Shown here in pieces: positions 832 through 64,000 of a stretch of 64,000 nucleotides of DNA; the stretch's first letter is position 1; each line of letters opens with the position of its first letter. The notes beneath the pieces are model-generated. The model made no database searches. It saw only the letters and a list, made by a program, of their open reading frames with translations, and had not been told where the DNA came from. The position numbers and the translations under genes were made by a program. The stretch comes from Bilabrum cf. latius (lineage: Eukaryota): NCBI GenBank assembly GCA_965178125.1, contig OZ237736.1, positions 496,001-560,000 of the forward strand, read 5' to 3'.

Positions 832-3306
832 ATGAGCAGCATCCCGAGCCTTGCGGAACTTGTAATTTTATCATTCGAAAGCAAGCAGCACGATTTAGAG
901 CAGATTCTGTCTCGGGCCAACTTCTGGAGCTTGCCAGTTGCACTACAGAGCGCAGCCGCCTACGTCATTCCAGACTATGTGCTTTCTCGTTATCTATAGT
1001 AGCATTCTGGATAGCAAGACTTCGAAAATTTGTTTAAAATTCTAGGCCATGCAGCAAGACGACGCATGTGGGCCCTCGCCAAGCTGTGCTCCGATAGCTT
1101 CGAGGTATCGGAGCTAGGTTCCAGAGAATCTCGAGATTTATGCCTGCTAGAGCCTCCACTGGACAATTTGTACGGTAGAACATACAGTATACAAACTGAT
1201 TCGGTCACGTTGCATGATTTTGCGTTTTAGGTGGCTGGCTCAACTGAAGCCACGGAATTAATCGGCCTAAGATAGCAATTGAGAAAGGTGATTACATTCG
1301 TACAGTCCCTAAGCTAGATGTTACAACAATCTGTGCCGACGTCCAGTCATGCGTTGGAGCGCAGACGGGTGCTGAAGCGTCGTACGGCGGGAGGTGCAAC
1401 CGAAGCATCTCCACCAGTGGCAGGTGCGGCAGTATCTAGTCGATAGCAATCGGATTTCACATCACGCAGAATCAAACTGATCAAGCCAAACAGCAGTACT
1501 CCTTCACTCAAATCAGGTCTTCGTTCAATTGCAAAGAGAGGCAGTCGGCCGTCTTGCAGGGCAACAACAGCAAAGATAGCCAAGCCGGCACAACTGAGCA
1601 GAGTCGTTGGTTCCAAACGCGCTGGAAGCATGCTCAAAGTTGGCCAAGGGACCCCTCCGCAGGTACAGCTTCGATTCATGCGATAGACCCGGAGAAGTTC
1701 CAGTCCTAGGAAGACGAGCACAGGTACTGAACCAGAATAGCAAGCGGCTGCCCACTCGAAGCGGGCACGTTCCCATGCATCCATGCGCGTGACGAGTGCA
1801 GTCCCGCAGCCGAGTACTGGCCACCGGCTTGCGCTGGCAAGGCGCATCCCCTCGGCTGGGCCAGCCACGCTGAAAGCAATGGGAGCAGGTGCTCCTTTGC
1901 TAATTGTCAGCCGCCTTGCTCCTCTGGCAGCGCCGAGACATCCCGTCAAGTCACCGCACAGATAGAGTCCTAGTCGGAGGCATGAGGGGAAATAGCACTT
2001 GAGAGCTGCTGGCAGGGCCACCGGGACGGGGCCAGCCAGAGTGAGCACTGGAGCGAGTGCTCAGGGATCTGGGCCTCACGGCCTGAATAAGACTGGCAGT
2101 GGCAGAGAAGAGGGTACAGCAGCTAGAGAATCAAAGCTAAAAAATGAAGCAAAGGCATCACACAAGCCCAGTGCAGATGCACTGGTGGCAGCATAGCGCA
2201 TTGTGCGTTCCATGAGAGCGTGGCTCGGTAGGCTACGCCGCCCGAGCGAGCAGGTGTCCGCGCTTCGCAATGCAGTGCAGTTCCCGGCACACCCCGCGGT
2301 GCTGGAGCTCATGGGCGCAGGCACACTCGTGCATCCCTTGATCCTGCGTCCCGCCGCGCAGTGCATGCGGAACCTCAGGCGTCTCTCCTTGCGGGGATGC
2401 GAATCGCTGCAGACCGCCGAGGCAGTTCCGACGATCGTGCGGTCCTTCCCGCTGCTGGAGCTGCTGGACCTCAGCGGGTGCCGCCTGCTCCGAGATGCGG
2501 AATTGATCGCTATTGGGGGCGGGTTGATTCGGCTCCGGGTCCTCGAGGTCGCGACCTGCAGGCGGATTACTGGAGAGGGGCTCAAGGCGTTCGCCGAGGC
2601 CGTGCACACGACGCCTGTTTTGCAACCCGCAAGCAGCGGATAGGAGCACTATGAAGCTGTCAACGATGGGGACGCGTCGCATCCAGTGGAAGATGGAGCG
2701 AGCACCACTGGGGCAAAAGCAGTTGCTCGGGAGCAGGTGCTGCCAGCATCCTCAGGGGCAGGCACGGATGTATACACGAAGGGATCGGAGCACGTCCTGA
2801 GCAGAGGAGTAGGGGATTCCACTCCCGAAATCGAAGTTAGAGGGAGTGCAAGGGACACGGTTCCGGTTTCCGGGCCTCGGATGGTGCGGAAAGTGACTGA
2901 AATACCGGAAGTGGAGCCCGCGCTGAGCAAGCGGCTGGCGCCGCACGGTACCAGCCCGAAGCTGACCCTTGGGTAGCGCGCTCTGTAGACGTCCGCTCTG
3001 CGCTGCCTCAACCTCGCGGATTGCAGAGGCGTCGACGATGCCGGGGTGGCAGCACTCGGCCGAAAGCTGCCTGGGCTCCGTGACCTTTGCCTGTATGGGT
3101 GCCTGCAGCTTACGGGAAGGTGTGCGGATGGATTCGGACACTTGGATTGCAGGCTGCGACGCCTGAACACGGCGGGGGTGTACAAGTTCGGGCACGAAGC
3201 TAGCAGCTACCTGCTGCAAGCGAACCCCGGCCTGCTCTTGTACAACAACCCAAACGAGTTCGACAGCTCTACCAGGCTTGCAGGCGGGGAGCGTTGGCTG
3301 CTTTGA
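832..3306 (+). CDS. Leucine-rich-repeat (AMN1/FBXL-type, cysteine-containing LRR) protein with N-terminal BC-box-like motif and an IQ-like motif; ~824 aa with TAG=Gln
   Basis: One frame from ATG 832 to TGA 3304-3306, interrupted only by 15 TAGs (e.g. 997, 1000, 1012, 1228, 2194, 2641, 2974, 2986) and no TAA/TGA. It joins track ORFs 1030, 1783, 1999, 2203, 2686 and 3046. LRRs: LRRLSLRGCESL, LELLDLSGCRLLRD, LRVLEVATCRRITG, LRCLNLADCRGVDD, LRDLCLYGCLQLTG. Start MSSIPSLAELVI. Confidence 0.8.
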
Positions 3307-3417
3307 CACGAACTTGATTTTTTCACTCAGGCCGCAACCGCACCGTTGTCCGCGCCAGCCCACCTTTGCATCTCGTTCTCCCGTTCTCGCACCAACTTGA
3401 AACCGGAACTCAACGCC

Positions 3418-5322
3418 ATGACCGGCCCGGGACCGCGAGAATCCGGGAACACACAAATTAGAAGCATTGATTCTGGCGACAAAATGGATAAACACGAAGA
3501 ACCCGCCCATTATTCGCATAAGCTTCCGGTGAAGCGCGACGATGATACCAAATGGAGGATCTACCGCCCTACTTTTAGTAGCGACGACTTCAAGATGTTG
3601 CTAGACCCCGCTTGGAACAGCCTGGCGAGGGATGGTAACCACCTTGCCATTGAGGTTCGGCAAATGACGCATGCCATGCCCCTGTCTGCCACGCCTCACG
3701 CGCTGACAGTGCTCCCACAGGACGACTCGGGGGATGGCGGGAAGGGGTCTAGTGGCAAGATCGCAACGTGTTTCTATACTTGCTATCCGGAAGGGTAGAA
3801 GAAGAGGACAGGCAAATATGACAGAGGCAAAGCATCGGGAAAGGGTGCAGCGAAAAAGAAGTCAAAAGAAGAAGGAGGCGATGCAGTCGGGCAAGTTATG
3901 TCAATTTTGGCTGGGGTGCCGGCATCCGATCGCCCTTGCGTTGAAATCCTAAGGAAACACACGCAAAGCGGCGACGTGTCAGTGGCACTGGCCCTTGAGG
4001 CGAGCATTGCAGTTTCAACTGGAATCGCTGCCGTGGTCCGATGCGGGATCCCATCAGCCATGGTCGCTACCTACATGCCGTCGGCTGCGAGAGATGACGG
4101 AAAAGGAGGCGAGCGAGTCGTGCCATCTCCTGTCCATGATGCCAGACTACACCAATCTGTGCTGTCTTACATGGGGAACGGTCAGGTGCTGCTCATCGGC
4201 GGCGAGGCCACGATGGCCGCCCTTGTCGAAGCAGCTGCCGCTGCCAAGGAGGAGCACCGTGACGGCGAGGCAGCACCCCCTGCTGCTGCTGCTGTTGTTG
4301 TTGTTGATGCTGTTGATGATAAGGCAAAAGCTGGTGCAGCTGCACGCGCGGCACCCGCAGCGGCACCAAAAGCGGCTGGGGAGCAAAGGCCGGGACCCAA
4401 GCCGAAGGCCAAGTGCGGCGTGGTGGCGATACCCCTAAGTCTACTTGCCGAGTCGCTTGCCCAGATAGGCGGCGTTGACACCAGTCCGGGGTCACACGGC
4501 ATGAAGTACGCCGCTGCCAGGATGACATTAGACGGTGAGGTGCTGGGCGGCGTCGCGGGCTACCTGCAGAAGGCGGGTGTGTTTGAGGAGGACCCGGATA
4601 GCGCGGCAAAGGCCCCTGGCCCCGCTCCTGCCCCCCCTTTGGGCCAACTCAAAGTGAAACTCAAGCCGAGGCTGCTCATGTGCTTCCAAGGGGCCGTGTT
4701 GGACGAGTGGAGCGGGTGCGCATCGAGTGGCGGAGCAGCAGCCGGAGTCGGAGCTGGAGCCGGGGAAGGCAGCTATGCTGGGATGAGAGAGAGGGCAGCC
4801 TCTGCAGTGGAGGCTGCACGGGCAGCGGAAAGCATGATGCGGGGGGATGCTCCTCTGGAGCATTTGAGGGAGGCGGCGGCCAGTGCGCTCCAAGGCGATG
4901 CAGGCGGGTCAGACGACAGGGCAAGTGCTGGGGCAAGCGTTGGATCGGGATCGGCGGCAGCGGGAGGTGCAGGGGGTAGCGAGGGAGTTGATGAAGGGGG
5001 AGGCAAGGCCAAAGCAGGCACCGATCAGCATTCAGTTGTGCTGAAGGCGAGCACGAAGCAGGTGCTTCTGAGCTATGAGGCGAGGATGGACGCCAAGACC
5101 GGCGTGTGGACGATACAGCTAAATCTGCCGGGCGGGAAGCGCAGATTCGCGGAAACAGACTGGGGATGTGCAATGCGCCACTTGAAGGATGAATCAGGCC
5201 TCGGGATTGAGCATTTGGAGCTGGCGGGGCTGCACCCAGTCGCTCGCACCATGGCGGATCCGCAGTGCTGGGCGGGGTCGATCCGGTTGGAGCTGATGCG
5301 ACTCTTTGTGTATTCTGATTGA
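3418..5322 (+). CDS. Hypothetical protein with C-terminal degenerate Nudix box; ~634 aa
   Basis: Track ORFs 3346-3798 and 3898-5322 are in one frame, separated by one TAG (3796). First ATG is at 3418 and the stop is TGA. C-terminal LNLPGGKRRFAETDWGCAMRHLKDESGL resembles Nudix GX5EX7REUXEEXGU. Confidence 0.65.
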
Positions 5323-7076: not shown

Positions 7077-10000
7077 TTATACCTCCGCACTCGGTTTGGT
7101 CCCTGGTCTCGCCGCCAACGCGCCACCAGTCACGCCTCTGCTGCTTCTTCCTCGCCCCCGACCTGCACCGCGGCCCCTACCCCTGCCACGACCCCTGCCC
7201 GCACTCGACAGTCTCTTCACTGCAGCAGTAGCTGCTGCTCCCCTCCCTTCAGCAGAGGAGGCAGCTCCCGGAGGACCGGACCCCCCGCGGCCCTGTAGAG
7301 CGGCGAGCGTGTCCAGCAGCTGCTCCGATCTAACTTCATGCCTCACCGCTGCTTGTGCCCTCGCCACACGAACCGAGAGCGCTTCGCCCGTCCCACCCGC
7401 GGCTCCGCTCCCCCCACCGGACCCGAACCCACCCCCCATCGGAGACATCATGCCGGCACTGGCAGAAGAAGACCCGGGGCCATCGGAGAACACGATGCTC
7501 CCCATCCCCGTCACCCGAACGCGGCCGTGCATCCCGACGGATCCTAGAGGACCGGGCGACTCGCCCCGCTCCGATTCCGCGTTGTTCCCCGGGCCCTTGT
7601 TCCCTGCCTCCGCGCCACCAGATCCGGCCTCGTCCTGCTCGCTGCCGCTATGGTTCGCTGCTCGTCCAACCCCGGCGCCAGTCCCCGAGGCCGAGGCTGG
7701 CAAGGCTTGCTGTTTCCGATCGAGAGGTCCATCTCCAGGGCCTGTACCACCACGCGATGCACCTGATGTGCCGCTGCTAGCGCTTCCGCTGCGAAGGCTG
7801 GAGGCACCGTCCGAGCGAGCCGCTGAGCCCGGCCGCATCCGTCCGTTGCGGCTCCCAGCACCACCATGCGATGCACCGGAAAGGCCTCCGATCAGCGGAG
7901 ACACGGCCGCAAACGAACCGGAGCGCTGCACCTGCTTGAACGCGTCCCCGTGGCCTAGATCAGCAGCACCCAGCAGCAGGGGCGACCCAGGCACGCCACC
8001 GCTGCCGCCTCCACCAAACGACCAGCTGGAGCCGCGAGTGTGGCCGCGGCCCGAGCCAGGCCTGCCACCCCCTTGTATAAACTGAAGGGACGCCTAAAGC
8101 AGCATGCCGCACTCTCGAGCGGCTGCAGATGATCGCGATGCAAGGGCATCTGAGGGGCCGGGCCTGCCCAGCAGACCCAAGTCAGATTGCAGCCAATCGT
8201 ACCAGCTCGACCCGGACACCTGCCCCCCCACGCGACCGGGTGGGTCGGGGGACAGCCCCGCTGCGTGTGCATCCGGGGATCGAATCCCGCTTGCGGCCAA
8301 AAAGGTATCCGTGAGGCCGCGCTGCCGCCCCACCACCCCGCCTTGGGTCACAAGTGCGCGCAGGATAACCACGCCCGCACCCCCAGCAAGAAGAACGGCA
8401 AGGGTAACCCCGCCCGGGGCCGAAGCGACCCCGGCGCTGCCCTCGGCGCCACCATGCCGCAAGGGTTCATCCTCCAAGCCAGACACGAAGGCAACACCGA
8501 TCACAGGAGTTCCAAACCGCCACACTGCAGCCGGCGGGTGATTCCATACACCCAGGGCCCTGACATCTCCGCCATCTCCGCTGCCGACCTCACCAGAAGC
8601 GCCGGAAGACGAAGCGTGCCGCCGCAGCTTGGAGAATAGCTTGCCGTCTTCCCCATCTCCTGCCTGCTTGGAATCTGAGCCGTCCGTGCTGCCGGCGCGC
8701 GTGCTGCCCCACTAACCTTGCTCTCGTGCTGCCAGCTCAGTCCCAGTCAGCACGCATGCAGTTGGTGTGCGAGTCAGCAGCACCTCCCCCGAGGCCGTGC
8801 CAGTCACTCGCAAGGTAGATCCATCTGGTGCTTTCCCTACACAGGTGGACAAAGGAGCATGCCGGAGAGCTGCCGCTGCCACGTCCTCATCTTCGGCTTC
8901 GAACCCCTCCTACCGCCCCGATCGCACGACGGCGGCGGCAGCTTGCGCAGCTCGAGACCAGGTCCCCATGCTCTCCCAACCGTGCAAAGAGCTAGAGGAA
9001 GCCCACCCAGGAATAGCGGCGACTTCGTGAGGCGCAGCAATCTTGCCAGACCCCGACCACGGCAGCCAGACCCTTGTTGTGTGGCTGGCGTCAGCGATGC
9101 GGAGCGCTCGAAAATCAGAAGAGAAGTCCAGCGACACGATGCGAGGCTCAGTCGCACCTCGGATCATCTTGCCCCTGCTTCCACTCCCCGCCCCTCCGCT
9201 GGCTGGTCTACGGTCCGACGACCGACCGCTGCGGGGCGTGCGCGAGCCCTGTCGCCTGACCGGGGTTGCCATACCTGAGCGGGTGCTTCTGCCTCCCAAT
9301 CCTGCCGAAGACACGGCACTTGCCCCGCCGTCCACGAGCGAGAGCTGGCGCTTTCTCAGCAGCCGAGCAGCTTCCTTTCTGCCCCCCGAGCCGGTTGCGG
9401 GAGCCAGGAGCTCGACCACCCCGTCGCAATACCCTGCAGCGAGGAAGCCCCCCTTGCCTGCTGCAAACCGAAGGCACGTCGGGTACGTTCTGCCACGCTG
9501 TGGCACCGCCACGGCACTCGCTGGGCCGAACACCAGCGTTTCGGCCTCGCCGGGATCCTCCTCACCGGTGCCAGTGCTGCCGCTGCTCTTGCTGCGGATG
9601 AGGTCGCCTGATCCAAGTCCTGACCTCTGCAGAGCTTCCAGGCGCTGCCTGCCGCCAGCACTTGCCGGTGGCTCCACCATTGAAGCAGCGAGCTTCACCG
9701 TCACGAGGGTAGGGGCATGACTGGCATGGTGCGCATCGTCTGGACTCAGCGTCTTGATCACATCGTGCTGCACCGACTGCAAGCCTACTCCTATCGTGGA
9801 ACGGTCAGGGGACACATCGATTGCAGTAATCGCCTGCCCCCACTTGCTGAGCTGCTAGAAGCACAGCCGACTGCCCAGCTGAGCATCCCATGCCTCTAAC
9901 ACACCGTTCTGTCTACCTACCAGCAGCACCGGGAAAATTGGATGCGAAGCTATCGCGGTCATTGGATCGCCCCTTCCAGCCAGCACAGTCCCGACTGCAG

Positions 10001-13000
10001 CTCTAGCAATGGAAGCAGGGTGTGCAGAAGCGGGTCCCGCCGACCCGGTGCTGCAGGCTCCCACCGCCGCCTAGAAGTAGGCGTGCGGCCACCCGACCAG
10101 AGACACCTCCCCGATGGCAGACACGGCAGCGGCAGCAAAGGGGTGCATCTGGCTTGCCAGGTCTGTGCTGCTGCGGAGTGACGGGTTGCCGCTCGTGGCT
10201 GCAGACCCAAACTTAAACGACTTTGCCCTATTGGCACTGACCCCACGCTGCGCAATACCCTCGTCGAACGATGAGCGAGGTGGCAGCATCCCAGCACCTG
10301 ACTTGAATACAAGGCAGCCAATTGCGCCTTGCATTGCCTGCAGCGTGGTACCGCATTTCGAAAGGCTCTGGGGAAAGGGAACTGGCTCCGACAGCCTTGG
10401 GTCCACCTCATCTGCGCTAAGCGGTCCAGTGTCACTTGATGTATCTCGACGGTGCAACCCCACCCCATCCGCTGTCAGCTCCACGGACCATCTGCTCATG
10501 GTGCCATCAGATGACCCAACGCAAATGTCGATCGCGTCATTAAGCACGAGGCCGTCACTCGCCCCATCGCTGCTCATGCTTGCACCGTCCAGGTTGGATC
10601 TGACGCACGCCAGTGCCATGATCGAGACCCCCCCCGGCCTCACTTGTGCCACTAGTTCCGTGCTAGACGTGGTCGAGTTGCTACCCTTGTTTCCCTGCAA
10701 GGCTGGCAGACCGGGCGATCCAGTACTGGGCCAGGACGACGCGGATGCGTAAGCACCGCCAAACAGCCACTCGATCTAGTTGCTGGTGGGCACGTCGATT
10801 GACTGCGCGATGGGTTGCAGCGCTCCGCTAGCATCGGGGCGCACGGTCATCGCTGGCGCGACCGGGACGCAAAACACTGAGATGGTCCCGTCTGTCGCAC
10901 CGAAGCAAGCAGCAACGACATCGGGCCACTGCCGGCTGTCGTCATCTTCCTCGCCACCCCTTTCGAACCACGGCCTCACTACCCCTGCAGATACCGACAC
11001 GTACTTGGCTTGCGAAGGCGGCTTGCGCAAGGGGGCGGCATCTTCCGTGTCGGAGTCCAAATCGGAGCCATCTGGAGTGGCCGGCACGGAGGGCGGCAGG
11101 CCCAAAAAGTGTGCTGAAGGGGCATCGAGAAGACCGGAGCAGTGAACGGTGCAGCTCGAGGCATTCTACCCCGCGCCGCAGCCGTCCGACGCGGCCAGAG
11201 AAACAGGTGTATCCTCCGTAGAAGCGGTACCCACTGCGCCCACGCAAATTCCAAGCACTGCGCGTATGCCTGGTCCTGCCAGCACGACCGAGTAGGCTTG
11301 CCTCGATTCTGCCTGGGGTGACGCGTGCGATGGGGAAGGCGGGGCAGGGCCAACCGTGATCCCTCCATCGAGAGTCAGTTTCGCGCTCTCATGCGGCGCG
11401 TGACCCGAGCCCGAGCGCGACCACGAGTTTGTTTGCTTCGTCACAAGCACGGTGGTTTGCACGACGGACATTCCCACGGCCTCAGCAGGCTGGCCAGCAC
11501 GCCCGGCCCCGCACTGCTGGTGCGTCCCAACGACATCTTCCCAGCACATAAGCAGTCTGCCACGGCTCGCCACATTTGCAAAACAGCCGGCAAAGCCGGC
11601 TCGCTTCTGCCGAAGTCTCTCTTTCCTGAGCGCCAACGCAAAGGTCCGGGTGGCAAGCGACGGCCGATTCGTGCCCAAAGGGGCAGACCCGACCGAAGAC
11701 TTCGGCGTATCAGACGCGGGTTCCAGCTCCGAGCTGTCTGCGCTGTCTCCCCCGGAGGTGGTCCTTCCGGTGCTATCAGCAGCACTTCGTGCAGCTGCTT
11801 GCTCGATGGAGGCCGGCAGCAGGCCGGCAGCCTTCTCCCCGAGCATGCTTGCAGCGGCAACAGACTCTGCTAGGTCGGGCTCGGTGCGATTCAAAGCCAG
11901 CCAAGCGGTGCTCGCGCTCACATCCTGCGCAACAGCTGCTGGCAAAGAACCGCCTCGTTCCATCTCCTGCTCCACGTCTTGTCGCGGAACGAAAGGGATG
12001 GCAGGCACACTGGCCGATTGCGCCCAGGACCACAAAGAGACCGACTGCTTGCCCCTTTGCTAACCCGCCGACAAATCAGACCTTGCGCGGCCAAGGAGCA
12101 CGAGAAACTACCCGTCTGGAGTGAACTGGAGGGCAGAAATTCCGCTGGAATGCACGCCAGCGCTGCAGCTCATGACCGCGACAACCGTGCCGTGCTAGGC
12201 GTGCACAACTGCAACGCAAGGTGCCGCGGCACTCCCAGCAGACTGCGCGGCTCTGCCAGCAAATCGAGCCGCGGGAGATGACGGTGGAGGACGACTGACG
12301 GCACTTTTGCGACCCTTTCGACCAAGCAAGCTGGGGTTCCCCGAGCCCTGGTCTATACGAACCCTCCACGCTACCGCCAGCAGCGGCATGCTGGGATGGG
12401 AGGCGACGCAGTCGATGCGGCCCGGGAAGATTGCCAAGGCATTCTGCTGCGTTGAGCCAAAGGCCCATGGTACGGATCTGGCCGTTCCGTGCGCATCCTG
12501 CGCCGCAGCATCCAGGAGCCAGCGTGCCTGCCCCTGCGGTGGATCGACTCGCATCAGCACGGTGCCATGCGCGACCGCCATCGATCCAGTACCTGGGTCG
12601 ATCAGCGCGGCGCACTGCCGTCCCAAGGAAATCGCACCTCCGGGTGCGCTAGTCGAGTGCAATACCGACGATGGTCCGGAGGAAACCAGGCGGGGCAAGA
12701 GAAGTGTGTCCACGGGTCTGCTCGCAATGGCAGCGATGGTCCTACGCATGCCCTTTAGAGGGGAAGCGAGACCGAGGCTACCGTGACTATGCGCATTGGC
12801 CTCGCTATGCCTACTGTTTCCAAGGCCCAAGGACCCCGCGCTGCTTCCTAGCGAGGCAGTGGCAGCGCTTCGGTGACCCGCCCTCGACCTGCGCGCGCCC
12901 GGCGGCGACTTGCCTGGCGAGCTGCCTTCGTCCTCTGTGAGCCAGGAGGGGAGGACGGATGTGCCCTGCTGCGGCCAGTAGCCAACTTCCGAGCAGCCAG

Positions 13001-14009
13001 TGGTGGCAACTGCCCTGCTCCCACGGAGCAGCGAGGCCATCGGATACTCGAGGTTGCAACCACCAGGCTGGCCGTGAGCGTCTCGGACGGACCCGGAGAG
13101 AAGCTTGGTCTGCCTCATAGCCAGAGGCAGTTCCCACTGCTGGCTTGCTACTGACAGAAAGAGGGTTTCAAGGGTTGTTTCATCGATGTCTGACTGATTG
13201 CTTGGCAGGAGACACAGGGCTGCGTGCTCCAACCCAAGAGCACTGAGCGAGCGCGCAGCAAGTGCTCGGACGGTCGACGCTGCCAGCGACCTGCGAGCGC
13301 GAGCGGACACGGGAGTGTGCAGCCCACTGCCTGCTGACAACTGGAGAGACGCCAGCCCTCCCACCATACCATTACGAGTGTTTTTTCCTCTCTGCGCAAG
13401 CCGCCTCCCTCTGGACCCGCTCGCTGCACTGCCACGGGAGGCACTCGAGCTACGCACAGCCGCCGGGGCTCGCCTGCGGTTGCGTAACTCTGCGCGAGGT
13501 GTGCGAGTTGCTCTATTCTGCCTATTCCCAGATGACTGCCCGGATCGACCAGAGGCCCGCCTTGCGCCGTTGGTGGCTGGCCGCAGCGCAGCGGAATTGC
13601 TAGCTGCAATGCTTCGTCTGGGTGTGGCAATAGCATTCGCGGCACTGCTTGAGCGACCCGAATGCGAAGAAGCGATTGATAATAGGTCGTCCCCGACCTG
13701 CGATGCATGTCGAGGCCGTCGGGCGGAAGCAACCGGGGCAAGCTTGGCTGCCACAGCGGGTCCAGCCGTTTCTCGCAGCAGTTTCTCCGTGCGGCGAGGT
13801 ACTTCATGGCCTGCCTCAACTAATACGCCCAAAATATCAGCTAGCGCGTCTTGAAGTCGAGCAATCGTCTACTATTGCCGTTCAACGACCTGCAGAGAAA
13901 GGGCTAGCGCGTCTAGAATCCACGCAGTTGAACTAGAACCTAGAGAATGAGCTCGCAGCAGCAATGCATACCAGGCGCATACCTTCTATATATTGTTTTG
14001 GGTTTCCAT
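7077..14009 (-). CDS. Giant WD40-like repeat protein with N-terminal coiled coil and long low-complexity inserts; ~2280 aa
   Basis: Track ORFs starting at 13832, 12035, 11105, 10700, 10064, 9815, 8525 and 7994 are all one minus frame, broken only by TAG (13 counted), ending at TAA 7077-7079. ATG 14009 with a probable intron 13890..13982 (GTATGC...CTGCAG) gives METQNNIQK|VVERQQQTIARLQDAL. WD-like segments: IDCVASHPSMPLLAVAW, MTAIASHPIFPVLLVGRQNGVLEAWD, TCLRFAAGKGGFLAAGYCDGVVELL, IVSLDFSSDF. Confidence 0.75.
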
Positions 14010-14142
14010 TGTTTCTTGCAGTATTGCAACCGCTCTTGTGCTGAGGCAGACTTTAAACGTCACCGGAGCCCCCTTTTTTTTTTTGGCTCCGCACCCAACA
14101 AAATATGCTCAAAACTACGTGCGAATTCGAAGTCTTGGCATC
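14010..14142. promoter_or_regulatory. Very short divergent intergenic region (putative bidirectional promoter) with poly-T tract
   Basis: 133 bp between ATG 14009 (-) and ATG 14143 (+); T run at ~14074-14084. Function inferred from position only. Confidence 0.4.
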
Positions 14143-15459
14143 ATGGAACTTCGATTTGGACTCGATTCGGTAGAGAAGTGGGTGAAGAACACGCACGGGC
14201 CAGTAAAAGCCCCATTCAGGTTGTTTCACGGGGCCATAACATCCCCTCAGGCTGCTGCGCTCATTGCGCATGCGGTACGTGAAGGAGCTTCGCGGGATTT
14301 TCTCGGATACTTTGTTGACACACACTTGGCTGGGCTTGAGGGGTGGCTTAGCCACTTGTCGAAGGCAAGGAGGGCCTGGGAGAGTCTTTTCGAATTGGTT
14401 GCGTGGAGTAGTTTGCAAGACTAGCTTGCAGCGCGCCAGACTGCCTTGAACGCTAGCCACCGCAGTAGAATAAAATCCCTTGCTTTTCTTCGATCAGCTT
14501 CAGAGCGGAAGCGCTGGCTATCGGTCGGCCGCACCGACACAGGACATCGACTTGTCGCAGGCTCACCAGCACCAGATGGAGCAGGCGGCAGTAGAACACC
14601 AGTGTTAGCCGGTAAGGCACTTGAACTGACCACCTAGTTCGTATGTAGTCAGGGTAGCACGACTCCAGAATCTCTTTAGAAAGGTGCTGACGCTCCTGCC
14701 GACAGCAGCGGCGCCGCTGCACACATTTCCATCCGGTCATTGCACTCGTGCCTATCGATGCTTGACGACTTGCTCGCCATGGCAAAGCACGACGGATGCA
14801 AGGGTGCTCTTCCTTCGGCTCCGTTACCAGCGGTAGCATCCGGCGCAGCTGGCGCAGCCGGCCCGCTCCCCCGTCTGCCTGCCAGTGAGGTCGAGGTCGA
14901 GAACTGTCGGGGGACACCTGCCCTTCGGCTCTGTGCTTCAGCGTGGGGTTTAATTGAAAGAGGTATTACAGGGCTTCAACGGGCATCCCTTGACGAAATT
15001 GAAGCGAGCAAGAGAGAAATCGAGGCTGTCATCGAAGGCAGAATGCGCAGTGCAAGGGCTTTTGCTGAAAGCAAAGCACGGAGCTTGCTGAACAGCCTTT
15101 GGACCCCTGAATACTCCGACTCGTGTACTGGCCCAACTTCTGGCTCTCCTGCCACTACCGCCGCAGCACCTGCTGCTAGCGATGCAGCGGGTCCAGGCAC
15201 AGGCAGCAAGGGCGCACCTCCCGCAGACACCTCTACCTCTGACATTCAACGCATTGCCAAGGCTGCGCATGCGTCGGCTGAATCGGATTTGCGCGCATCA
15301 TAGTCTCGCGTGGACAAGATGGGTGCTTCCATATTGCGAGCGAGGCTTGGCGCCATCGCTGCAAAGCAACTGCTCGAGGAGCAGATGAGAGATGCAGCCG
15401 GAGCGAACGTGACGATAGTCGTGCCCAATCTGGAGGGGGATTCGGCGCTCAGAGGCTAA
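14143..15459 (+). CDS. Hypothetical protein, ~438 aa
   Basis: One frame from ATG 14143 to TAA 15457-15459 with TAGs at 14422, 14635, 14677 and 15301; joins track ORFs 13993, 14446 and 14740. No domain recognised. Confidence 0.6.
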
Positions 15460-15815: not shown

Positions 15816-15940
15816 ATCTCGCATTGGAATGGAATTGCGGGCACACTTTGAAGAACCCGGAACCATGGGCAGTTCGTTCCGTTGCGATTTGTGCAGAGTT
15901 GATGGCATCTTTGTGAATTCGTAACCTCTGCCAGTTTAAT

Positions 15941-17824
15941 ATGGCTGGGGCAAAGCATGGTAGACTTGAGGTCGACTCGTTCAGCTTGGATGAGTTGCGA
16001 GAACGCATGGATCGTTCCATAGTTTTGGATCTCTCGAAAGGATGGAAGCGCGGGCCCAAACGGGGTGCTGCGCGCTTTCTGGCCCTGTTCCAATGCGTGG
16101 AGAGCTTGGTACTTAGCAGCTACAGTGGGACTGGCGCTGGGCGACATTTGGCGCGCATAGTTCGAGAGTGTCAACATTTGCGCGAACTAACTGTTGTTGG
16201 GCTGCTCATGCCCCAACAAGGCTTGGATCGAATTCTGTTTGCCGCCGGACAGCATCAAAGTCTCCGATCACTCAGTTTGATTCACACGCCGAATCCTGGT
16301 GCTTCTGCGTTGCTAGCCTTGTGCAGCAGTCTATCGCTTCGATCCATCCATCTGGTCGGGTCAAAGGTGTCTGGCGAATGCAGTGCAGTAATTAATCAGT
16401 GCTTGGTCAGACCAGACTGCATGATCGAGTCTTTAACTCTGGGGCTGGCCCAGTTCTCGCCGCGCGAGTGTCTGGATCTCGGCGAGGCACTCAGCCGAAA
16501 CTTGTCGGTGCGTGAACTCTGCCTCAAGGCTCGCGGCGACAGCATGCGGATTCCTGATATAATGGACTCTGTGAGCCACTGTGATGGCCTCTTGTCCCTA
16601 CAATTCAGCGACTTGCGCCAGGAAATCCCTGCTGATTGGCTTTCGCGGGAAGCACGATTGCCGCCGGCGTTGGTACGGTTCTTGACCACATGCACTTGGG
16701 GCGGAGCTCGTGGCTGGACCAAGAGCCTGTCCAATACCTTTGCAAGAAAACTAGGCATGAAGTGTGCTCTGATCCGATACGACGACGCCACCGGAGGGGA
16801 GAAGCTGGGATTATTTGACGCGAGAGAGGTGCCACCTACGACTGTGCCAGCCTCGGCCTGGTTGACCAGCCCAACTCCTCCAACGCTGGTCAGAGCGGTT
16901 TCCCTCCTGCACCTGCTCGCAATGGGACGCCCACTATCCACGGATGCCGTGCTTGATTATGTCCTGCGTGCTGTGCTGCACGACAGAAGCTGCCATGCGG
17001 TACAGCTGGCCCGTCTGGGTCAGGTCCTGTGTTGCGTTGGGGGTGCGAGAGCACCATGGGGGGAAGATGACCCGGGACGCATGGCAGTGAGCATCACAAA
17101 GGCAGCGCGATACTGGAAGCCTGGGCTTCCTGACGCCCCTGTCGAAGACGCGGAGGGACGGCCGGCCGGGGGTGCTGGCTTCGGATTTGCCGAAGCGCTT
17201 GCTGCCGACACGAGCCGAGGCTCACGCACACGCGGGGGCGCCAGCAAGAATAAGAATAAGAAGAATAGCCATTCAAACGATAAGCGGTAGATCCTCTCAA
17301 GATCACGCCGTCGTCGTGGCGCTGTGGAAGGCGCGCTCGCCTGCATGCTTAGATCTGGATTGGTGGCTGCCCTGCGGAGCCGGAGCATTTTGGAATTGGA
17401 AGCTGCCTCCAGCGAGCGAGCGATATTTGGAGGTGGTGCTCGCCCGAAAGGGTGGTGGAAGCATGACCCGAAACACTACCGGCGGGCAATTGCCGTAGAG
17501 TAGTTCAGTGCTGCAGTCCGTGGCCTGGTAGGAACGCTAGCCGACCGCCGGGGCATTCCAATGGTCCAATGGAGAAGGGCAGTGGAGGCCAAGCGGGACG
17601 CTGCCATGGTGTTTCAGGCGGCCGCAGAAGGCAGGCCCCTGGAGCTGGCAAAGCGGTTGCGGCTCGGCGTGCTGGCGGGCGGGCTGGGCATTGCGGGTCG
17701 GCTACGTCTTGGGGACAGTCCTGTGCCACCGCTGGAAGCGGCGCGGCTGGGCGGGCACGAAGCTTGCGTGAGTCTCCTGGTGCAGGCAGCGTCTCGTGTT
17801 GGTCCTGATCCGGGCGCAGGCTGA
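15941..17824 (+). CDS. RNI-like LRR protein with C-terminal ankyrin-like motif; ~627 aa
   Basis: ORF 15941-17290 continues through TAG 17288 and one more TAG into ORF 17561-17824 (TGA). LRR motifs HLRELTV, SLRSLSL, LRSIHLV, LGEALSRNLSVRELCL; ankyrin-like PLEAARLGGHEACVSLLVQA. An upstream exon is not excluded. Confidence 0.65.
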
Positions 17825-18021: not shown

Positions 18022-19202
18022 TCACTCCTGCTTCTTGGCCAGGAAGTCGTACATGGACCCGAAGTCCTTGGTGGCGTACCCGTGCTGAGAGATGAGCTCG
18101 TACATTGCAAGCGCCGTACTGCCCGCCGGCAAGGGCGCGTTCACCGCCTGGGCCGCCTATGCAGCAAGTCCGAGGTCCTTGCGCATGAGAGCAGAGCCGA
18201 ACCCGCCCTGGTACTCCCTCGAGGATGGCACCCCCTCCATGACGCCCGGCACGGGGTTGTACGTGTCTGAGCTCCAGCACCTGCCCGTGGATGTGTTCAC
18301 GATGTCTGCGAGCACCTTTGGGTCCGCGCCCAGCTTGATACCGAGGTTCATTGCCTCACTCACGCCCAGCATGCTGATGCCGAGGATGAGGTTGTTCACG
18401 ATCTTGGCGACCTGGCCCGTGCCGGCAGCGCCGCAGTGCACGGTCTTGGCTCCCATTGCATTCAGCAGCGGCTTGGCCTTTGCTAGGGACTCCGACTCGC
18501 CGCCCACCATGAACGTGAGGGTGCCTGCCTCGGCACCGCCGACCCCTCCGGACACGGGTGCGTCCAGGAGCCCCAGTCCCTTGCTGCTGGCCTCGCCCGC
18601 TAGCTGCTTCGTCACGTTCGGGTCGATCGTGGAGCAATCCACAAGCACCGGCTTCGAGGCGCTGCCTGCTGCCAAGTCGAACACTTCTTCTCGCAGCACG
18701 CGTGCGACGTGCGGAGAAGATGGCAGCATGGTGATGATGGCCTCTGCGCCCTCGACGGCATCCTTCACTGTCGCAGCGCTGGCGCCTCCCGCTTCCACCG
18801 TAGCATTGGCAGCCTCGGGATTGACTGCGGATAGGTGGAGCTTAAATTAATCCTTTGGCCCAGTCACATACAATCGTGGGTCACATGATGCACCCGTGCT
18901 GCCATAGATCTGCTATGAATGTGAGAGTCTTACGGTCAAATGCCTTCACGCTGTGGCCTGCCTTGCACAAATTGACCGACATGTGAGATCCCATGTTACC
19001 TAGACCAATAAAACCAACCTGCGATGCTAGTGGGCTCTAGTTCTGCCGAATGGGGCAGTGATCCCGCGCAGTTGCACTCCAGTTGCTGCTGCCGTCTGCT
19101 CTACCTCACATGGATATTTTTTGATCCAGCAGCCGACATGGTGCGACGTACACTCCCCACAATGCACGACTTGGCTACTCGAGAAGCTCTAGACGCAAGC
19201 AT
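18022..19202 (-). CDS. HIBADH: 3-hydroxyisobutyrate dehydrogenase, mitochondrial; 3 exons, 326 aa
   Basis: complement(join(18022..18824,18934..19018,19110..19202)). Presequence-like MLASRASRVAKSCIVGSVRRTMSA; motifs VGFIGLGNMG, DCSTIDP, DAPVSGGVGGAEAGTLTFMVGG, GQVAKIVNN, STGRCWSSDTYNPVPGV. TAG at 18157 lies in MRKDLGLAA*AA and is followed by the conserved tail GYATKDFGSMYDFL; TGA stop. Confidence 0.95.
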
Positions 19203-19324
19203 ATCGCCAGAAAGTAACTTGATTGCAGACCAGCTGCAAACAGTGGTATATTGCCAAAATACACGCTACAACATCTGAAGTTGCCTTTGGGAACGCGTCA
19301 GTTCAATTTTGATTCACACCTCCA

Positions 19325-41054: not shown

Positions 41055-42308
41055 TAGTCAGTAAGAGTATGGTATCATGTATAATTTGCTCCGAAGCAGT
41101 GAAGGCAAGCTTGTTTCAGTCGAGGAATGGTCAATTCATCACCAGTCCGGATTTCGGAATTCGGATTCCGGATGGTTGCCCCCGGCGGTTGCAACTGCAA
41201 ACCACTCGCGCAAATAGAGACTCCCTGTACACGTACGTGTACAACAAATGGAGCTGGTGGTGTCTACCAAGACTTAATTAGTCGGCTGCATGTCCTCCCG
41301 CCTGACACCACCAGTGCGCCCAGTCCATTCGTTGATGGGCAGGTCCTGACGCAATAACCTCCGGGAATATGCCGTTACATGTGGTAGTGCGCCACCCTAG
41401 GGGGCCTCCACGGTGGCGGTGGGCTTGGCGCTCATTTGCTTGTGTTGCATCCGCGATCGTCGAGTGGAAACTCTCCAACGGCTGCACCAAAAGGGGGCGC
41501 CTTCGAGGGGAGCTGGGGGGGTGGGTGGGGGCGACTTGCAGTCCGCCAGTGCTAGCCAAACCGACATGTAGACCGCTGAGATGGAAACTGCGGGAAAATT
41601 CGATATGGAGTCTGCGCTGCAAGGCAGGTTGGATGTCGATTCAGCTGCTCCTGTTGCAGCTACAGATCCCGTGAGCGAGCGTGTGGCAGGGCCTGTCTGA
41701 ATCTGGCTAAGTCGCAATACATGCACTCCACTTTACATGCACGTCGGATTGCACGTCGGCACCGTTCCTGGAGTTGTTCCAGGGTGCCTTGGACGATTGA
41801 GAGCTCCAGAGAGTCTGAGTCCCCTCGGTGGTCGTGCGTCAGCACCTGCTCCGTTTTGACGTGTTCCATCCATAGTGCTCTCCCCACTGCCGTGGGTGCC
41901 CAGGAAACATCCGTGTGCGTGGCTTCCGCGCGCATCTTTCGGCCTGTACCGAGCGTTCTCCTCTGTGGTGTATGGCACCTTCCCTAGGGTAACGCCCAGT
42001 GAGCCATCGTAAGATGAGGCGGCCATCTCGGCCTCGCCAGGTGCTCCGTGCTATCGCTGGCATGGCCGATGGACCGAGGATCCGGGAATTGTCCAAAGCG
42101 ATGCAGCTCTGTAGGTGCTTCATACCTACAGACTCCTCGTCGAACTTTGCCCAGGCGTCTGTCACTACCGGATGCATCGTTTCGGCTTCGCGAAGTATTC
42201 CGTTTTTTTGGCGAGATGAGAGACGTTGGCACTCTTCCGGTTTTCACATGCGAATTCCCGCGTCGCAGCAGCAAACATTTCTCCGCCCTTATCATGCGGG
42301 TAGATATC

Positions 42309-43582: not shown

Positions 43583-43725
43583 CTGCACTGGGGGAGGAAG
43601 GGTGGGGGGGGGGGGGAAGAAAACTTGACCTGACTGTCGGGGAGATATTCATGGAAACGCTCTGAAGCTCTGTAACTAACGACACTATCTATGTTGCAGG
43701 CCTTGCTTGCCGAATCGATCGGAGC

Positions 43726-46251
43726 ATGAAACGTGCCTCACGAGGCGGATCCAAACTGCTGAAGTCGTCATTCTTTCTCTGTAGCGGGGCGAGGATGATC
43801 TCTTCACTGATTTTTGTAGGTTTACTGCATTTGATACATGCGTCGGATCTTGACACGGTTAGCGCCAGGTTTGCTACCTCGCTTCTACCCAAGGACAGGT
43901 CGGAAGGAGAGAGCCTAGCAAACGAGGTGAACGGAATACTCGCAAAGTTCATCTCGAGCAACTGCACGTTCGAGGGAATTGACTACAACTCAAAGCGAAG
44001 GGCAAGCTGGCCAGTCATGGCTCATCTTTCTTACACTCAAGCCATGCTGGCAGGCTGGCGCTCGAACCAAACTGGATCGCTTCATAATAACGCAACCGTG
44101 CGAAACGCTGGCGTATGCGCCCTCAATTGGTGGCTTGTCCACAAGCCTGAATGTCCGAATTGGTACGATCAGGTCATCTCGGGCCCCAACAACATTGGCC
44201 AGGCTGTGCTGTACCTCGGGGCCGGCTCCCTGCCGCAGAATCAGACCGACGCAGCTGATGCACTGATGAACAAGGCCGCCGGCCCGTGGACCGGAAGCAA
44301 TCTCCTCTTTGTGCTCCGCGCGCAAATTCTTCGTGGGTTGTTCTTGAAGGACGCAGACCACGTCGGGAAATGCTTCAGCACAGCGTATGGCTCGCTGGTC
44401 CTCTCGAACCAAGGCGATGACGGCATCCAGGCCGATGGGTCCTTCCACCAGCACGGGCCCCAGCTCTTGGCTGCTCACACGTACGGGTCTGAGTTCTCTA
44501 ACCACGTGCTTGAAATGACCATGCTGTCAGCGGACACGCAGTGGCAGCCCGCAGATGGCCCGTTGGCGAACTTTGCGGGTCTGGTGCTGGACGGGCAGCA
44601 GCACATGGTGCGGGCGCAGTCGGACCACTGGGATTGGCAGGCGGCTGGACGGTCCGTCGATACGCCACCTGGCCACCTCACTGGCGTGTCGTCCTCCCTA
44701 GTGCCCTCTTGGATGCGGTCTCTGGCAGACCGGCCCAGGGGTGACGAGTGGGTGGCGTTCGCTGACAGGCTTGATGCGGGCAGCAGCGGGGCGCCTCTTG
44801 TCGCGACAAAGGTGTACTGGGACAGCGACTTCGCCACGCACGCCACGAAGGATTTCTCAATGAGCATTCACATGCACAGCAAGCGCACCATCGGCGGTGC
44901 TTGCGTCAACGAGCAGGGTAAGCTGTCCCAGAGGATGTCTGACGGCACTATGGCTGTCTACCACAAGGGGGATGAGTACGATGGCGTGTGGCCAGTCCTC
45001 GACTACATGCGGCCTCCCGGGACTACAACGGCGATGAACGGAGAGGAACTGGGCTGCGGCAACGCCAAGAAGCCAACGTACTCTGGTTGCACCTTTGTTG
45101 GGGGAGTTGCCTCGAACTCTTCTGCCTTTGGCGCCCTCGCCATGGACCTTCACTACGACAAGGAGATCCACGCTCCCAGATCGTGGATGCTCATCCCGGA
45201 AGGATCCATCATGCTCGGTCAGTCCCTACAAGCCGCTGCTGGTGAAGACTTTCCCCTCGCCACCACGATGGACCAGAGGCTACTCGCCGGGGACGTCTGG
45301 ATCGGGACTCACCTGAGCGGAGGCAAGCCAGTGAAGTTGACAAAGCAGGGAAATTTTTCATACGGCATTCCAGGGGCTACTTCTGACTCCAGTCTACATT
45401 TTGGGGATGGCAGTATCGCTGACAACGACATCCTCCAGTGGGTATGGCACGACGGGACTGGATACGTGCTGCTTGGTGACAGCATGGGTGCACAGCACGA
45501 CACACCCCCGACAAGTGCACAGCTTTTCGTCGGTCCAAAGACTGGGGACTGGTCCAGGGTTGGTGTCGAGTCGGGCAATGTCACTTTGGACATGCTAGAC
45601 CTCGCTATGTATCACGCCAATGATGCAGCACAAGGAAATGGTACGTTTGCCTACGCCGTCCTGCCCACAGTCAGTTCGCCCAGTGACATGCAATCGGCCA
45701 TCGCAAGGTTTACCACCCAGCCGGCTGCCGGTCGGGATGACCAGCCTGCCTCAGCAGATGGCAAGATCAGAGTTATTCGCCCTGTAGTCGACGGGGCGTT
45801 CGCACCGTGGCACGCAGTACTGCATGACAGCGACGCCACGATGCTGGCTGTGATTTGGGATGCGAACGCACCGCCAGCCGCCGCAGGATTGCTGCAAGAC
45901 GGTACATTCACGCCGGTCAGCGCGGGAGCTGGGTGGTCAATTGCCTCTTCTGTCCCCACTACTGTCGTGGTGGATGCATCCGGCCTAGACTCCTCCGGCT
46001 CAGGGACTGTACTGCTCTCTGCTGCGTCTCCCGGCATCGACGGTGGCAAGATATCACTGTACGTGGACCGTGCGCTCAGTGCATGCACAGTTGCAGGCAC
46101 CAGCAGCGTATCTTGCGTGCCGTACTCGCCTCCTGCCTCAAGCCGTACAGCCTCGCTTAGTGAGGCTTCGACCTGGACGCAGATTACGTTCGAGTTGCCT
46201 GGCGGCGACCGTATGGTGGGCGCGCCCGTGAGTGTTCGGGCAACGAGCTGA
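43726..46251 (+). CDS. Polysaccharide lyase family 8 (chondroitin AC/hyaluronate/xanthan lyase-like), secreted
   Basis: Uninterrupted 841-codon ORF; probable start ATG 43795 (MISSLIFVGLLHLIHA signal). PL8 motifs NWYDQVI, WTGSNL, DGIQADGSFHQHGPQL..HTYG, AGRSV, DYMRPPGTT, FVGGV, RSWM, TTMDQR, WVWHDGTGY, FAYAVLP. Confidence 0.9.
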   Translation: MKRASRGGSKLLKSSFFLCSGARMISSLIFVGLLHLIHASDLDTVSARFATSLLPKDRSEGESLANEVNGILAKFISSNCTFEGIDYNSKRRASWPVMAHLSYTQAMLAGWRSNQTGSLHNNATVRNAGVCALNWWLVHKPECPNWYDQVISGPNNIGQAVLYLGAGSLPQNQTDAADALMNKAAGPWTGSNLLFVLRAQILRGLFLKDADHVGKCFSTAYGSLVLSNQGDDGIQADGSFHQHGPQLLAAHTYGSEFSNHVLEMTMLSADTQWQPADGPLANFAGLVLDGQQHMVRAQSDHWDWQAAGRSVDTPPGHLTGVSSSLVPSWMRSLADRPRGDEWVAFADRLDAGSSGAPLVATKVYWDSDFATHATKDFSMSIHMHSKRTIGGACVNEQGKLSQRMSDGTMAVYHKGDEYDGVWPVLDYMRPPGTTTAMNGEELGCGNAKKPTYSGCTFVGGVASNSSAFGALAMDLHYDKEIHAPRSWMLIPEGSIMLGQSLQAAAGEDFPLATTMDQRLLAGDVWIGTHLSGGKPVKLTKQGNFSYGIPGATSDSSLHFGDGSIADNDILQWVWHDGTGYVLLGDSMGAQHDTPPTSAQLFVGPKTGDWSRVGVESGNVTLDMLDLAMYHANDAAQGNGTFAYAVLPTVSSPSDMQSAIARFTTQPAAGRDDQPASADGKIRVIRPVVDGAFAPWHAVLHDSDATMLAVIWDANAPPAAAGLLQDGTFTPVSAGAGWSIASSVPTTVVVDASGLDSSGSGTVLLSAASPGIDGGKISLYVDRALSACTVAGTSSVSCVPYSPPASSRTASLSEASTWTQITFELPGGDRMVGAPVSVRATS

Positions 46252-63000: not shown

Positions 63001-63466
63001 CATGTCGGCTGGGTCGGTGGTGGATCGGGTGGTACCAGTGCTGCGCGGGAATCGCGGGGGAGCTCTCGCAGGCACGTGGCTGCTGGCAGTGGACATGGGT
63101 AGTGTCGGCTATCGCATCCAGCTCCCCTGTCTGCGTTCGTCGGTGGAGGCATACGCCGAAGACTGCAATACCGTCGGGGCGATGTGGATGCATCGGGGCG
63201 CCACGTGGGCACAGCTGCTTGCAGTGACGGCGATGATAGCCTGCAGCATGGTGTACGCGGTGTCATGTTGGTATGCTGTGTGCAGACTGCAGGCTTCGAT
63301 TGACCTGGAGATCATCTCGGCGAGCGCGTGTCGGGTCTGCCGGATGGTGCTGCACTGGGTGCTTGCGGCGCAGCTGGTTCGAGCGCGGCTGGACGGGCCG
63401 GGTGACGTGTGGATCATAGCTCTGAGCCTGGGATTGGTATTGCGCGCGATCCTGATCGGATGCTGT
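56751..63466. repeat. Large inverted repeat: arms ~56751-59540 and ~60734-63466 with a ~1.2-kb spacer
   Basis: Paralogues C and D are near-identical reverse complements over these arms except for three short unrelated cassettes. The spacer holds their divergent 5' ends. Confidence 0.9.
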
Positions 63467-64000
63467 AGAATGGACATTGCCAGTCGGTATGTGTTGGAAT
63501 CAGGTGAACAGCAGTAGCACGGCAGAGCGGGTGCAGTCCATGATGGAAATCAGTACCGGCGCAGGGATGCAGTCGTTCCGGAACCTGGGCTAGCAATCAC
63601 TAGCAAGCATGGAATGCTTTAGGCTGATACACGATCATGGAATGCGGATAGTGGAACAGGTCGGGCAGGAGTCATCAAATCCTTGGTTCTTGTTGAGACG
63701 ACGGTTGGCATAGCAGGGTGCAGGAATCCCAGCGCTGAATCGAAGTGGCCCCGCAATAGCGCTCACAGTAGATTGCGTCGCATTGTGTCGACATTGTCGC
63801 TGGCGTACCCCGTGCGATTGGCATTTATCAGAGTGATGGCCGTGCTGGATTGGGACACCTAGCTGCTGCTAGCATCGAGTTGCATCCAGGGAGGCTCGGG
63901 GTTGCGGAACACTGACAGTCGCGAGGCCCCCCTCATTGAAGAAGATGCGTCGGACCATGATAGAATAGTTGGGTAGATGTTTTCAGACTCCGAGTCGGAC
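60179..64000 (+). CDS. Receptor-like multi-pass membrane protein, paralogue D (3' end runs off the window)
   Basis: join(60179..60347,60429..>64000). Signal MHVLFLVALVQDAFS; 81-nt GTAAGA...CGCAG intron; 9 TAGs and no TAA/TGA up to the window end. Confidence 0.8.

Follow-up and report, generated by a model that had tools for sequence, protein, structure and literature searches.

A 64-kb stretch of a Bilabrum cf. latius contig in which UAG is probably read as glutamine while UGA and UAA serve as stop codons

The DNA analyzed here is a 64-kilobase (kb) stretch, referred to as the window, of contig OZ237736.1 of Bilabrum cf. latius (positions 496,001-560,000; assembly GCA_965178125.1), and the subject of this report is the genetic code in which its genes are written. 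A preliminary description, made from the sequence alone, had proposed that UAG is a sense codon for glutamine in this genome while UAA and UGA remain stops. The guanine-plus-cytosine (GC) content of the window is 58.4% (37,372 of 64,000 bases), ranging from 54% to 64% per 4-kb stretch. With the borders of the frames set by TAA and TGA, the following genes and frames were recognized (coordinates are those of the window; E, expectation value; GC3, GC content at third codon positions):

832..3306, plus strand: leucine-rich-repeat protein; 824 codons, 15 TAG, TGA stop; Pfam LRR_6, E=6.3e-6
3307..5322, plus strand: NUDIX-like frame; 671 codons, 1 TAG, TGA stop; weak C-terminal match
7077..14108, minus strand: low-complexity protein; 2,343 codons, 13 TAG, TAA stop; weak EML-type beta-propeller match
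13951..15459, plus strand: frame without a Pfam family; 502 codons, 4 TAG, TAA stop
15917..17824, plus strand: frame without a Pfam family; 635 codons, 2 TAG, TGA stop
18022..19105, minus strand: 3-hydroxyisobutyrate dehydrogenase; at least two coding pieces (18884-19105 and 18022-18846), TGA stop; NAD_binding_2 and NAD_binding_11
19313..22213, plus strand: glycoside hydrolase family 31 (GH31) protein with a PAN domain; 966 codons, 3 TAG, TGA stop; Pfam E=1.1e-34
22439..24466, minus strand: frame of 675 codons, 4 TAG, TGA stop; carries the spliced intron 24339-24470
24642..29837, minus strand: CDT1-like replication licensing factor; 1,731 codons, 11 TAG, TGA stop
30375..31198, plus strand: VPS29; exons 30375-30401, 30492-30566, and 30662-31198; no TAG; TAA stop at 31196-31198
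31281..31754, minus strand: acylphosphatase; 2 TAG, TGA stop; Pfam PF00708, E=1.3e-19
31673..35689, plus strand: frame without a Pfam family; 1,338 codons, 13 TAG, TGA stop
36805..40872, minus strand: frame without a Pfam family; 1,355 codons, 13 TAG, TGA stop
41432..42424, minus strand: frame without a Pfam family, doubtful as a gene; 330 codons, 4 TAG, TGA stop
42575..43582, plus strand: DUF1295 / steroid-reductase-like membrane protein; 335 codons, no TAG, TGA stop, GC3 0.72; Pfam E=2.9e-56
43666..46251, plus strand: polysaccharide lyase family 8 (PL8) protein; 861 codons, no TAG, TGA stop, GC3 0.66; Lyase_8, E=2.1e-47
46575-50627, minus strand: paralog A; 9 TAG, TGA stop; no Pfam family
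51021-55574, plus strand: paralog B; 13 TAG, TGA stop; no Pfam family
55752-59885, minus strand: paralog C; 12 TAG, TGA stop; no Pfam family
60377-64000, plus strand: paralog D; 8 TAG, running beyond the window; no Pfam family

The preliminary description had taken VPS29, CDT1, and spliceosomal introns as marks of a nuclear genome, and the identities of both genes were borne out. The Metallophos_2 fold of VPS29 was found by Pfam in the last exon (30662-31195), and its homologs and atlas clusters carry the VPS29 name. The CDT1-like frame matched Pfam CDT1 (PF08839, E=9.3e-11) and CDT1_C (PF16679, E=3.2e-6), and among PDB entries its C-terminus matched the Cdt1 chain 2klo_A (E=0.0032).

TAG is the sole stop triplet inside the long, conserved, and transcribed frames of the window. 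Over all positions of the plus strand, the stop triplets number 864 for TGA, 503 for TAG, and 250 for TAA, the rarest of the three. With standard decoding, the longest frames between two stops in the window have 861, 835, and 557 codons. Reading through TAG gave top frames of 2343, 1731, 1517, 1377, 1355, 1350, 1338, and 1208 codons, whereas reading through TAA left the lengths of the top ten frames identical to those under the standard code, and reading through TGA gave only 961, 881, and 727 codons. The 17 long frames contain 125 TAG in frame; together with the frames of the 3-hydroxyisobutyrate dehydrogenase, the acylphosphatase, and VPS29, they form a set of 20 frames (18,626 codons) with 128 TAG, no TAA, and no TGA in frame. 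The hand count in the preliminary description, about 120, was close to these values. In the off-frames of the same 20 stretches, the mean of the two held 183 TAG, 79 TAA, and 346 TGA. The absence of internal TAA and TGA is partly built into the count because TAA and TGA delimit the frames; this does not apply to how long the frames are, to their matches in Pfam and PDB, or to the alignments of the paralogs over their full length. Single examples were reproduced as well. The stretch 832-3306 holds 15 TAG and no TAA or TGA ahead of its terminal TGA over 825 codons, and the minus-strand frame given earlier as about 2280 codons at 7077-14009 has its 13 TAG in 2,343 codons at 7077-14108 and ends with TAA. 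In the 17 long frames, TAG accounts for approximately 15% of the glutamine-family codons (125 TAG, 454 CAG, and 227 CAA), and, like CAA, it favors weakly constrained positions.

The ends of the genes were examined in the 19 complete frames of this one window. Sixteen of them end with TGA and three with TAA (7077, 15457-15459, and 31196-31198), in exact agreement with the preliminary description. Neither of two patterns that it had named as contrary to its proposal was found: there is no in-frame TAA in the 18,626 codons, and each of the 19 frames can end without recourse to TAG. The TGA of the dehydrogenase falls exactly at the C-terminus of its homologs, and the TAA of VPS29 lies approximately 20 residues past the end of its homologs. 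Reading through TAA joined no two genes, and the tails that it added hold further TAA; in the case of the 2,343-codon frame, the tail was 163 codons long, with two more TAA within 46 codons. The ratio of CAA to CAG (227:454) predicts dozens of in-frame TAA if UAA and UAG both encoded glutamine, and the finding of none therefore disfavors such a code. UAA is not a sense codon here.

The preliminary description had also suggested a check of the TAGs in RNA. Runs X1-X4 represent one DNA sample, possibly that from which the assembly was made, and cover the stretch in full, and runs X5-X7 come from two studies other than the source of the DNA and contain 30-90% of the sampled words of the stretch. 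The contigs of X1, X5, X6, and X7 were compared over 19300-36000 (16.7 kb), where the parts without X6/X7 cover were not interpreted. Five GT..AG segments (GTAAG/GTGAG..CAG) are missing from contigs of X5, X6, and X7, and no X1 contig skips them, which bears out the spliceosomal introns described earlier (lengths in nucleotides, nt):

24339-24470, minus strand: intron of 132 nt, GTGAG..CAG, in the frame 22439..24466; spliced in X5 and X6 contigs
29795-29886, minus strand: intron of 92 nt, GTGAG..CAG, upstream of the CDT1 frame
29963-30083, minus strand: intron of 121 nt, GTGAG..CAG, upstream of the CDT1 frame
30402-30491, plus strand: intron of 90 nt, GTAAG..CAG, in VPS29; joints in X5, X6, and X7
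30567-30661, plus strand: intron of 95 nt, GTAAG..CAG, in VPS29; joints in X5, X6, and X7

Removal of both VPS29 introns yields a continuous three-exon frame. Because the X5-X7 contigs skip five introns, they derive at least partly from spliced RNA. Between the contigs and the DNA of the compared region, no differing letters and no insertions or deletions were listed. Listed X5 pieces cover all 33 in-frame TAG of this region, and listed X6 or X7 pieces cover 13 of them as well. One X5 contig (19315-22321) covers the GH31 gene, another (30661-36000) spans all 13 TAG of the frame 31673..35689, both with no differences, and the acylphosphatase is covered by contigs of X5, X6, and X7. None of the five introns takes out a TAG. 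Because the DNA and the intron-skipping contigs agree across the 33 TAG, we conclude that transcripts contain the TAGs, that splicing does not remove them, and that no editing of them is visible.

The residue encoded by TAG was examined in an alignment of the four paralogs of the window with two homologs from metagenomes, in which a partner was regarded as well aligned when it showed at least 50% identity in the six columns on each side. Across 18 TAG columns, the commonest partner is glutamine in 13, leucine in two, and proline, lysine, and serine in one each. The BLOSUM62 scores summed over the same columns are 51.1 for glutamine, 17.0 for glutamate, 11.1 for lysine, and 6.5 for arginine. 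In stricter columns, with at least three partners and a 75% majority, glutamine forms the majority in 5 of 10 columns for TAG, 12 of 25 for CAA, and 78 of 89 for CAG; the similar rates indicate that TAG behaves like CAA, the rarer of the ordinary glutamine codons. In paralog A, a TAG located 24 codons from the end faces a conserved glutamine, and the C-terminal segment after it is conserved too. Single-copy comparisons point the same way. The TAG at residue 230 of the dehydrogenase corresponds to glutamine in the two closest homologs, P0153 (86% identity) and P0154 (63%), and the in-domain TAG of the acylphosphatase aligns with a glutamine of acylphosphatase-1 (solved chain 2k7k_A). These comparisons suggest that UAG is probably decoded as glutamine, as had been proposed.

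When metagenome contigs were searched with the paralog alignment, two loci of one metagenome, L001 and L002, came to light. The DNA of L001 is 85-90% identical to the window over long matches (60166-63398 and its paralogous region), and its genes are ordered head-to-head as in the window. In the L001 ortholog of paralog D, a frame of 1,040 codons contains 7 TAG, and 619 codons of the more distant homolog L002 contain 8. Paralog D can be aligned with its L001 ortholog over 1,023 codons, of which 717 are the same; the remainder comprise 160 synonymous and 146 non-synonymous differences. TAG is present in nine of the aligned pairs: four TAG/CAG, one TAG/TAG, and one each with CCA, AAG, CTA, and CAC. 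As judged from these alignments, the relative carries TAG at positions other than those of the window and appears to share its code. Since TAGs have been gained and lost amid purifying selection, TAG seems to be a working sense codon rather than a product of decay.

The codon counts, the RNA-derived contigs, the comparison of paralogs and orthologs, and the alignment to solved homologs agree, and they led us to the reading, to which we assign a probability of about 0.88, that the window belongs to the nuclear genome of a eukaryote with few introns and 58% GC in which UAG encodes glutamine and UGA, the main stop, and UAA terminate translation (NCBI table 15). According to Panek et al. (PMC5304391), reading of UAG but not UAA needs a transfer RNA (tRNA) with a CUA anticodon and an eRF1 that does not release at UAG. 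By extension from that work, a tRNA with the anticodon CUA, charged by glutaminyl-tRNA synthetase, would decode UAG and not UAA in this organism, and its eRF1 would have no efficient recognition of UAG while keeping that of UAA and UGA.

Several observations weigh against this reading. ARAGORN found no tRNA genes, and hence no tRNA-Gln(CUA), in the 64-kb window, and no eRF1 gene was found within it. No run that contains the stretch is recorded as RNA; the run type of X5-X7 is a guess, X5 being flagged 'probably DNA', so that their RNA origin is deduced from the splice joints only; contigs also drop rare variants, and partial editing could thus have escaped the comparison. At residue 230 of the dehydrogenase, the column of the wider alignment holds aspartate in 53 of 120 sequences and glutamine in 7 of 120. 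One of the TAG columns of the paralogs has serine in all four partners, and leucine is the commonest partner in two. The three TAG of GH31 and the two TAG in the C-terminal domain of CDT1 occupy unconserved positions and are uninformative. In the L001 copy of paralog C, as seen by eye, a TAG stands at a tryptophan (in EAWF) that is invariant in the four paralogs of the window; it lies on the minus strand of L001, in the ortholog of window 59055-59673, and may reflect an error in the sequencing of a low-coverage contig, decay of this copy, or a real change from tryptophan to glutamine. Finally, the CDT1 frame ends with TAG-GGN-CGN-TAG-TGA (24642-24656), which may be accidental or may point to termination that depends on context.

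CDT1 could terminate at TAG, since TAG occupies both its fourth-last and its last codon before TGA, and the frame 31673-35689 has one TAG 8 codons before its end. With 19 gene ends open to inspection, these positions raise the possibility that UAG is ambiguous, encoding glutamine inside genes and acting as a context-dependent stop for some genes, as in codes without dedicated stops. We consider this unlikely. No complete frame needs TAG as its stop, the TAG near the end of paralog A faces a conserved glutamine with a conserved segment behind it, and a frequency of approximately 0.7% TAG per codon leads to an estimate of about 1 in 16 genes with a TAG nine or fewer codons from the end, against two observed. 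Decoding of UAG as another residue, e.g., glutamate, lysine, leucine, or serine, which are known or conceivable neighbors by a single change, would suit the columns in which TAG faces serine (one), leucine (2 of 18), lysine (one), or proline (one), as well as the wider dehydrogenase column, which is mostly aspartate, serine, or alanine, and UAG codes for leucine and for serine exist in other eukaryotes (PMC11687900). However, glutamine is the commonest partner in 13 of the 18 columns with a BLOSUM62 sum three times that of the next residue, the glutamine-majority rate at TAG matches that at CAA, and the closest dehydrogenase homologs and acylphosphatase-1 have glutamine where TAG occurs, whereas tryptophan, the other transition neighbor, is a partner just once. 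We therefore regard another residue as quite improbable.

A code in which both UAG and UAA encode glutamine (the table 6 type, cf. Amoeboaphelidium protococcarum), with TAA merely rare owing to high GC, gains from the rule that the two codons usually change together, which the preliminary description had stated and which agrees with PMC11687900, and from the position of TAA as the rarest stop triplet in the window. Such a code is nevertheless very unlikely here: TAA is missing in frame where TAG occurs 128 times in spite of the considerable use of CAA, three frames end in TAA, including VPS29 just past the ends of its homologs, the tails obtained by read-through hold further TAA, and the GC content of Amoeboaphelidium is about 40% (PMC10608142), not 58%. 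The bare presence of stop triplets in frame, together with the invisibility of low-level editing to contigs, could also be taken to mean that the TAGs are untranslated because they belong to decayed pseudogenes, are assembly errors, or are removed by splicing or editing. This we judge to be extremely improbable, as TAG alone among the stop triplets is present in frame, the same letters are found in the DNA run and in the intron-spliced contigs of two other studies, the five introns coincide with no TAG site, and the environmental relative keeps open frames with TAG elsewhere amid many synonymous changes.

The reading of UAG as glutamine with UAA and UGA as stops can be set beside known codes. 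The genome had been described earlier as not ciliate-like, which is reasonable: the window has 58% GC, genes of up to 7 kb on at least 64 kb of DNA, and introns of 90-132 nt, and such features would be unlike ciliate macronuclear DNA. The window encodes 3-hydroxyisobutyrate dehydrogenase, an enzyme that is mitochondrial in animals. The same three assignments are described for the nuclear code of Iotanema spirale (Fornicata), in which in-frame UAG is likewise moderately frequent and never evidently ends a gene (Panek et al. 2017, PMC5304391). Approximately 40% of the conserved UAG positions in Iotanema are dominated by glutamine, as is the case for its ordinary glutamine codons, and the window is alike in this respect. 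The two differ in their stops, with 104 UAA and 15 UGA in Iotanema against 3 TAA and 16 TGA in the window, and Iotanema is an anaerobic gut flagellate for which only a transcriptome existed as of 2017 (PMC5304391), in contrast to the dehydrogenase gene found here. Protocruzia tuzeti and two lineages of phyllopharyngean ciliates also reassigned UAG alone to glutamine and kept UAA as a stop (PMC11687900); they share the code of the window and would differ from it in the genomic features given above. Together with Iotanema, these ciliates bear out the earlier statement that nuclear precedents for this code are few (PMC5304391, PMC11687900).

Among non-ciliate nuclear genomes, UAG is uncoupled from UAA, as in the window, in the rhizarian exLh, where it encodes leucine, and in Scotinosphaera, where it encodes serine (PMC11687900). 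The residue differs from that in the window, where leucine is the commonest partner in 2, serine in 1, and glutamine in 13 of the 18 columns, and the exLh-type code was rejected on the count for leucine. Amoeboaphelidium protococcarum resembles the window as a non-ciliate eukaryote with a change from stop to glutamine, TAG and TAA both appearing to encode glutamine (PMC6299283); it differs in that TAA is not a sense codon in the window and in the GC contents of 40.5% and 39.9% of Amoeboaphelidium genomes (Table 1, PMC10608142), compared with 58.4%. Nuclearia thermophila, also considered, has 44% GC, and the text on it makes no mention of its genetic code. The table 6 code, which is found in ciliates, Hexamita, some ulvophytes, and Amoeboaphelidium, was rejected on the absence of in-frame TAA beside 128 TAG. 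Codes without dedicated stops, of the Condylostoma and Blastocrithidia types, were rejected as TAG alone, and not all three triplets, occurs in frame. Code 15, with TAG as glutamine and TAA and TGA as stops, is also used by crAss-like and other gut phages (PMC9523058), and a phage origin of the window is excluded by the five spliced GT..AG introns and the eukaryotic VPS29 and CDT1.

TAG is unevenly distributed over the genes of the window. The adjacent DUF1295 and PL8 genes have no TAG in 1,196 codons despite 40 CAG/CAA, where approximately 8 TAG would be expected at the rate of the window. GH31 has a GC3 of 0.75, and its three TAG are confined to an unconserved N-terminal extension (residues 91, 95, and 128). 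Homologs of GH31 are mostly bacterial, the best named one being a Physarum transcript with 35% identity, and the nearest atlas clusters of PL8 are also mostly bacterial, which serves as a lead only. Possible causes of this lack of TAG are that the genes were transferred after the code had changed or that they are highly expressed. Ribosomal-protein genes, as a rule strongly expressed, contain few UAG in exLh (PMC5304391), and the TAG-free, high-GC3 genes of the window may be a parallel case.

The tandem paralogs at 46575-64000 are present in four copies of alternating orientation, with 45-47% identity to the second copy. They are approximately 1,350-1,500 residues long and have a highly conserved cysteine- and tryptophan-rich center and hydrophobic C-terminal segments; our guess is that they are surface or receptor-like proteins. 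The translation of the frame 36805..40872 has a threonine/proline-rich stalk and a hydrophobic segment close to its C-terminus. The NUDIX match of the frame 3307..5322 (Pfam E=3.8e-4) scores 20.9 bits, slightly under the cut-off of 21.1, and the start of this frame is probably internal. At about 5400-5800 lies a tandem repeat whose minus strand encodes (PQPAAAA)n. Within CDT1, a low-complexity stretch at about 27017-27053 (region 26541-27097) is repeat-like, with a depth of 360-960 and many loose ends in three RNA-type runs. VPS29 on the plus strand and the acylphosphatase on the minus strand are convergent, with their stop codons 82 bases apart (31198 and 31281). Between them, the RNA-derived contigs listed have ends at 31162/31200 and starts at 31241/31266, suggesting that the 3' untranslated regions of both genes are very short, although contig ends are weak evidence. 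An Rfam scan of the 64-kb window found no families.

The relationships of the genes are mostly distant. The dehydrogenase, which has one TAG in each coding piece and a predicted exon junction, has PDB chain 2gf2_A as its best structure match (E=4.8e-82); its named homologs from Planoprotostelium, Sphaeroforma, Hondaea, and Ciona are all 56-59% identical and not separable. For VPS29, the best full hits show 48-49% identity, and closer partial matches show 95% (over 45% of the query) and 58% (over 68% of the query). The close relatives found in the protein database are short, with 121 and 258 residues, and the closer relatives are environmental sequences: the partial VPS29 match at 95%, the dehydrogenase at 86%, and the metagenome contig L001. 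A scan of prokaryotic genome contigs with VPS29 gave no match, and an atlas search with VPS29 gave only generic VPS29 clusters.

The code itself has already been described, and the window represents a new or unrecognized case, although the public genome may have been described already. A full-text literature search, with most subscription journals outside its scope, found, apart from the cases named above, no report of UAG as glutamine in a non-ciliate eukaryote of high GC content. We tentatively propose, at somewhat less than even odds, that the window documents an unreported, independent origin of the code with UAG as glutamine and UAA and UGA as stops in a GC-rich, intron-poor, poorly sampled non-ciliate lineage, the closest named homologs being only 35-59% identical; that the code is shared with relatives at approximately 89% DNA identity and is thus clade-wide; and that PL8, DUF1295, and the catalytic part of GH31 are transfers that followed the code change.

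If this proposal is true, the existing assembly and RNA data would together reveal directly the tRNA-Gln(CUA) and the alterations of eRF1 by which UAG is uncoupled from UAA, which was impossible for Iotanema as of 2017, with only a transcriptome (PMC5304391). Nuclear code changes are rare, and those separating UAG from UAA are rarer still; the cases named in PMC11687900 are one rhizarian, Iotanema, Scotinosphaera, and a few ciliate lineages. A GC-rich lineage whose genes mostly end with UGA would provide a test of how GC content and stop usage let UAG be captured. Gene callers that assume the standard code will cut almost all long genes into fragments, both in this organism and in its environmental relatives.

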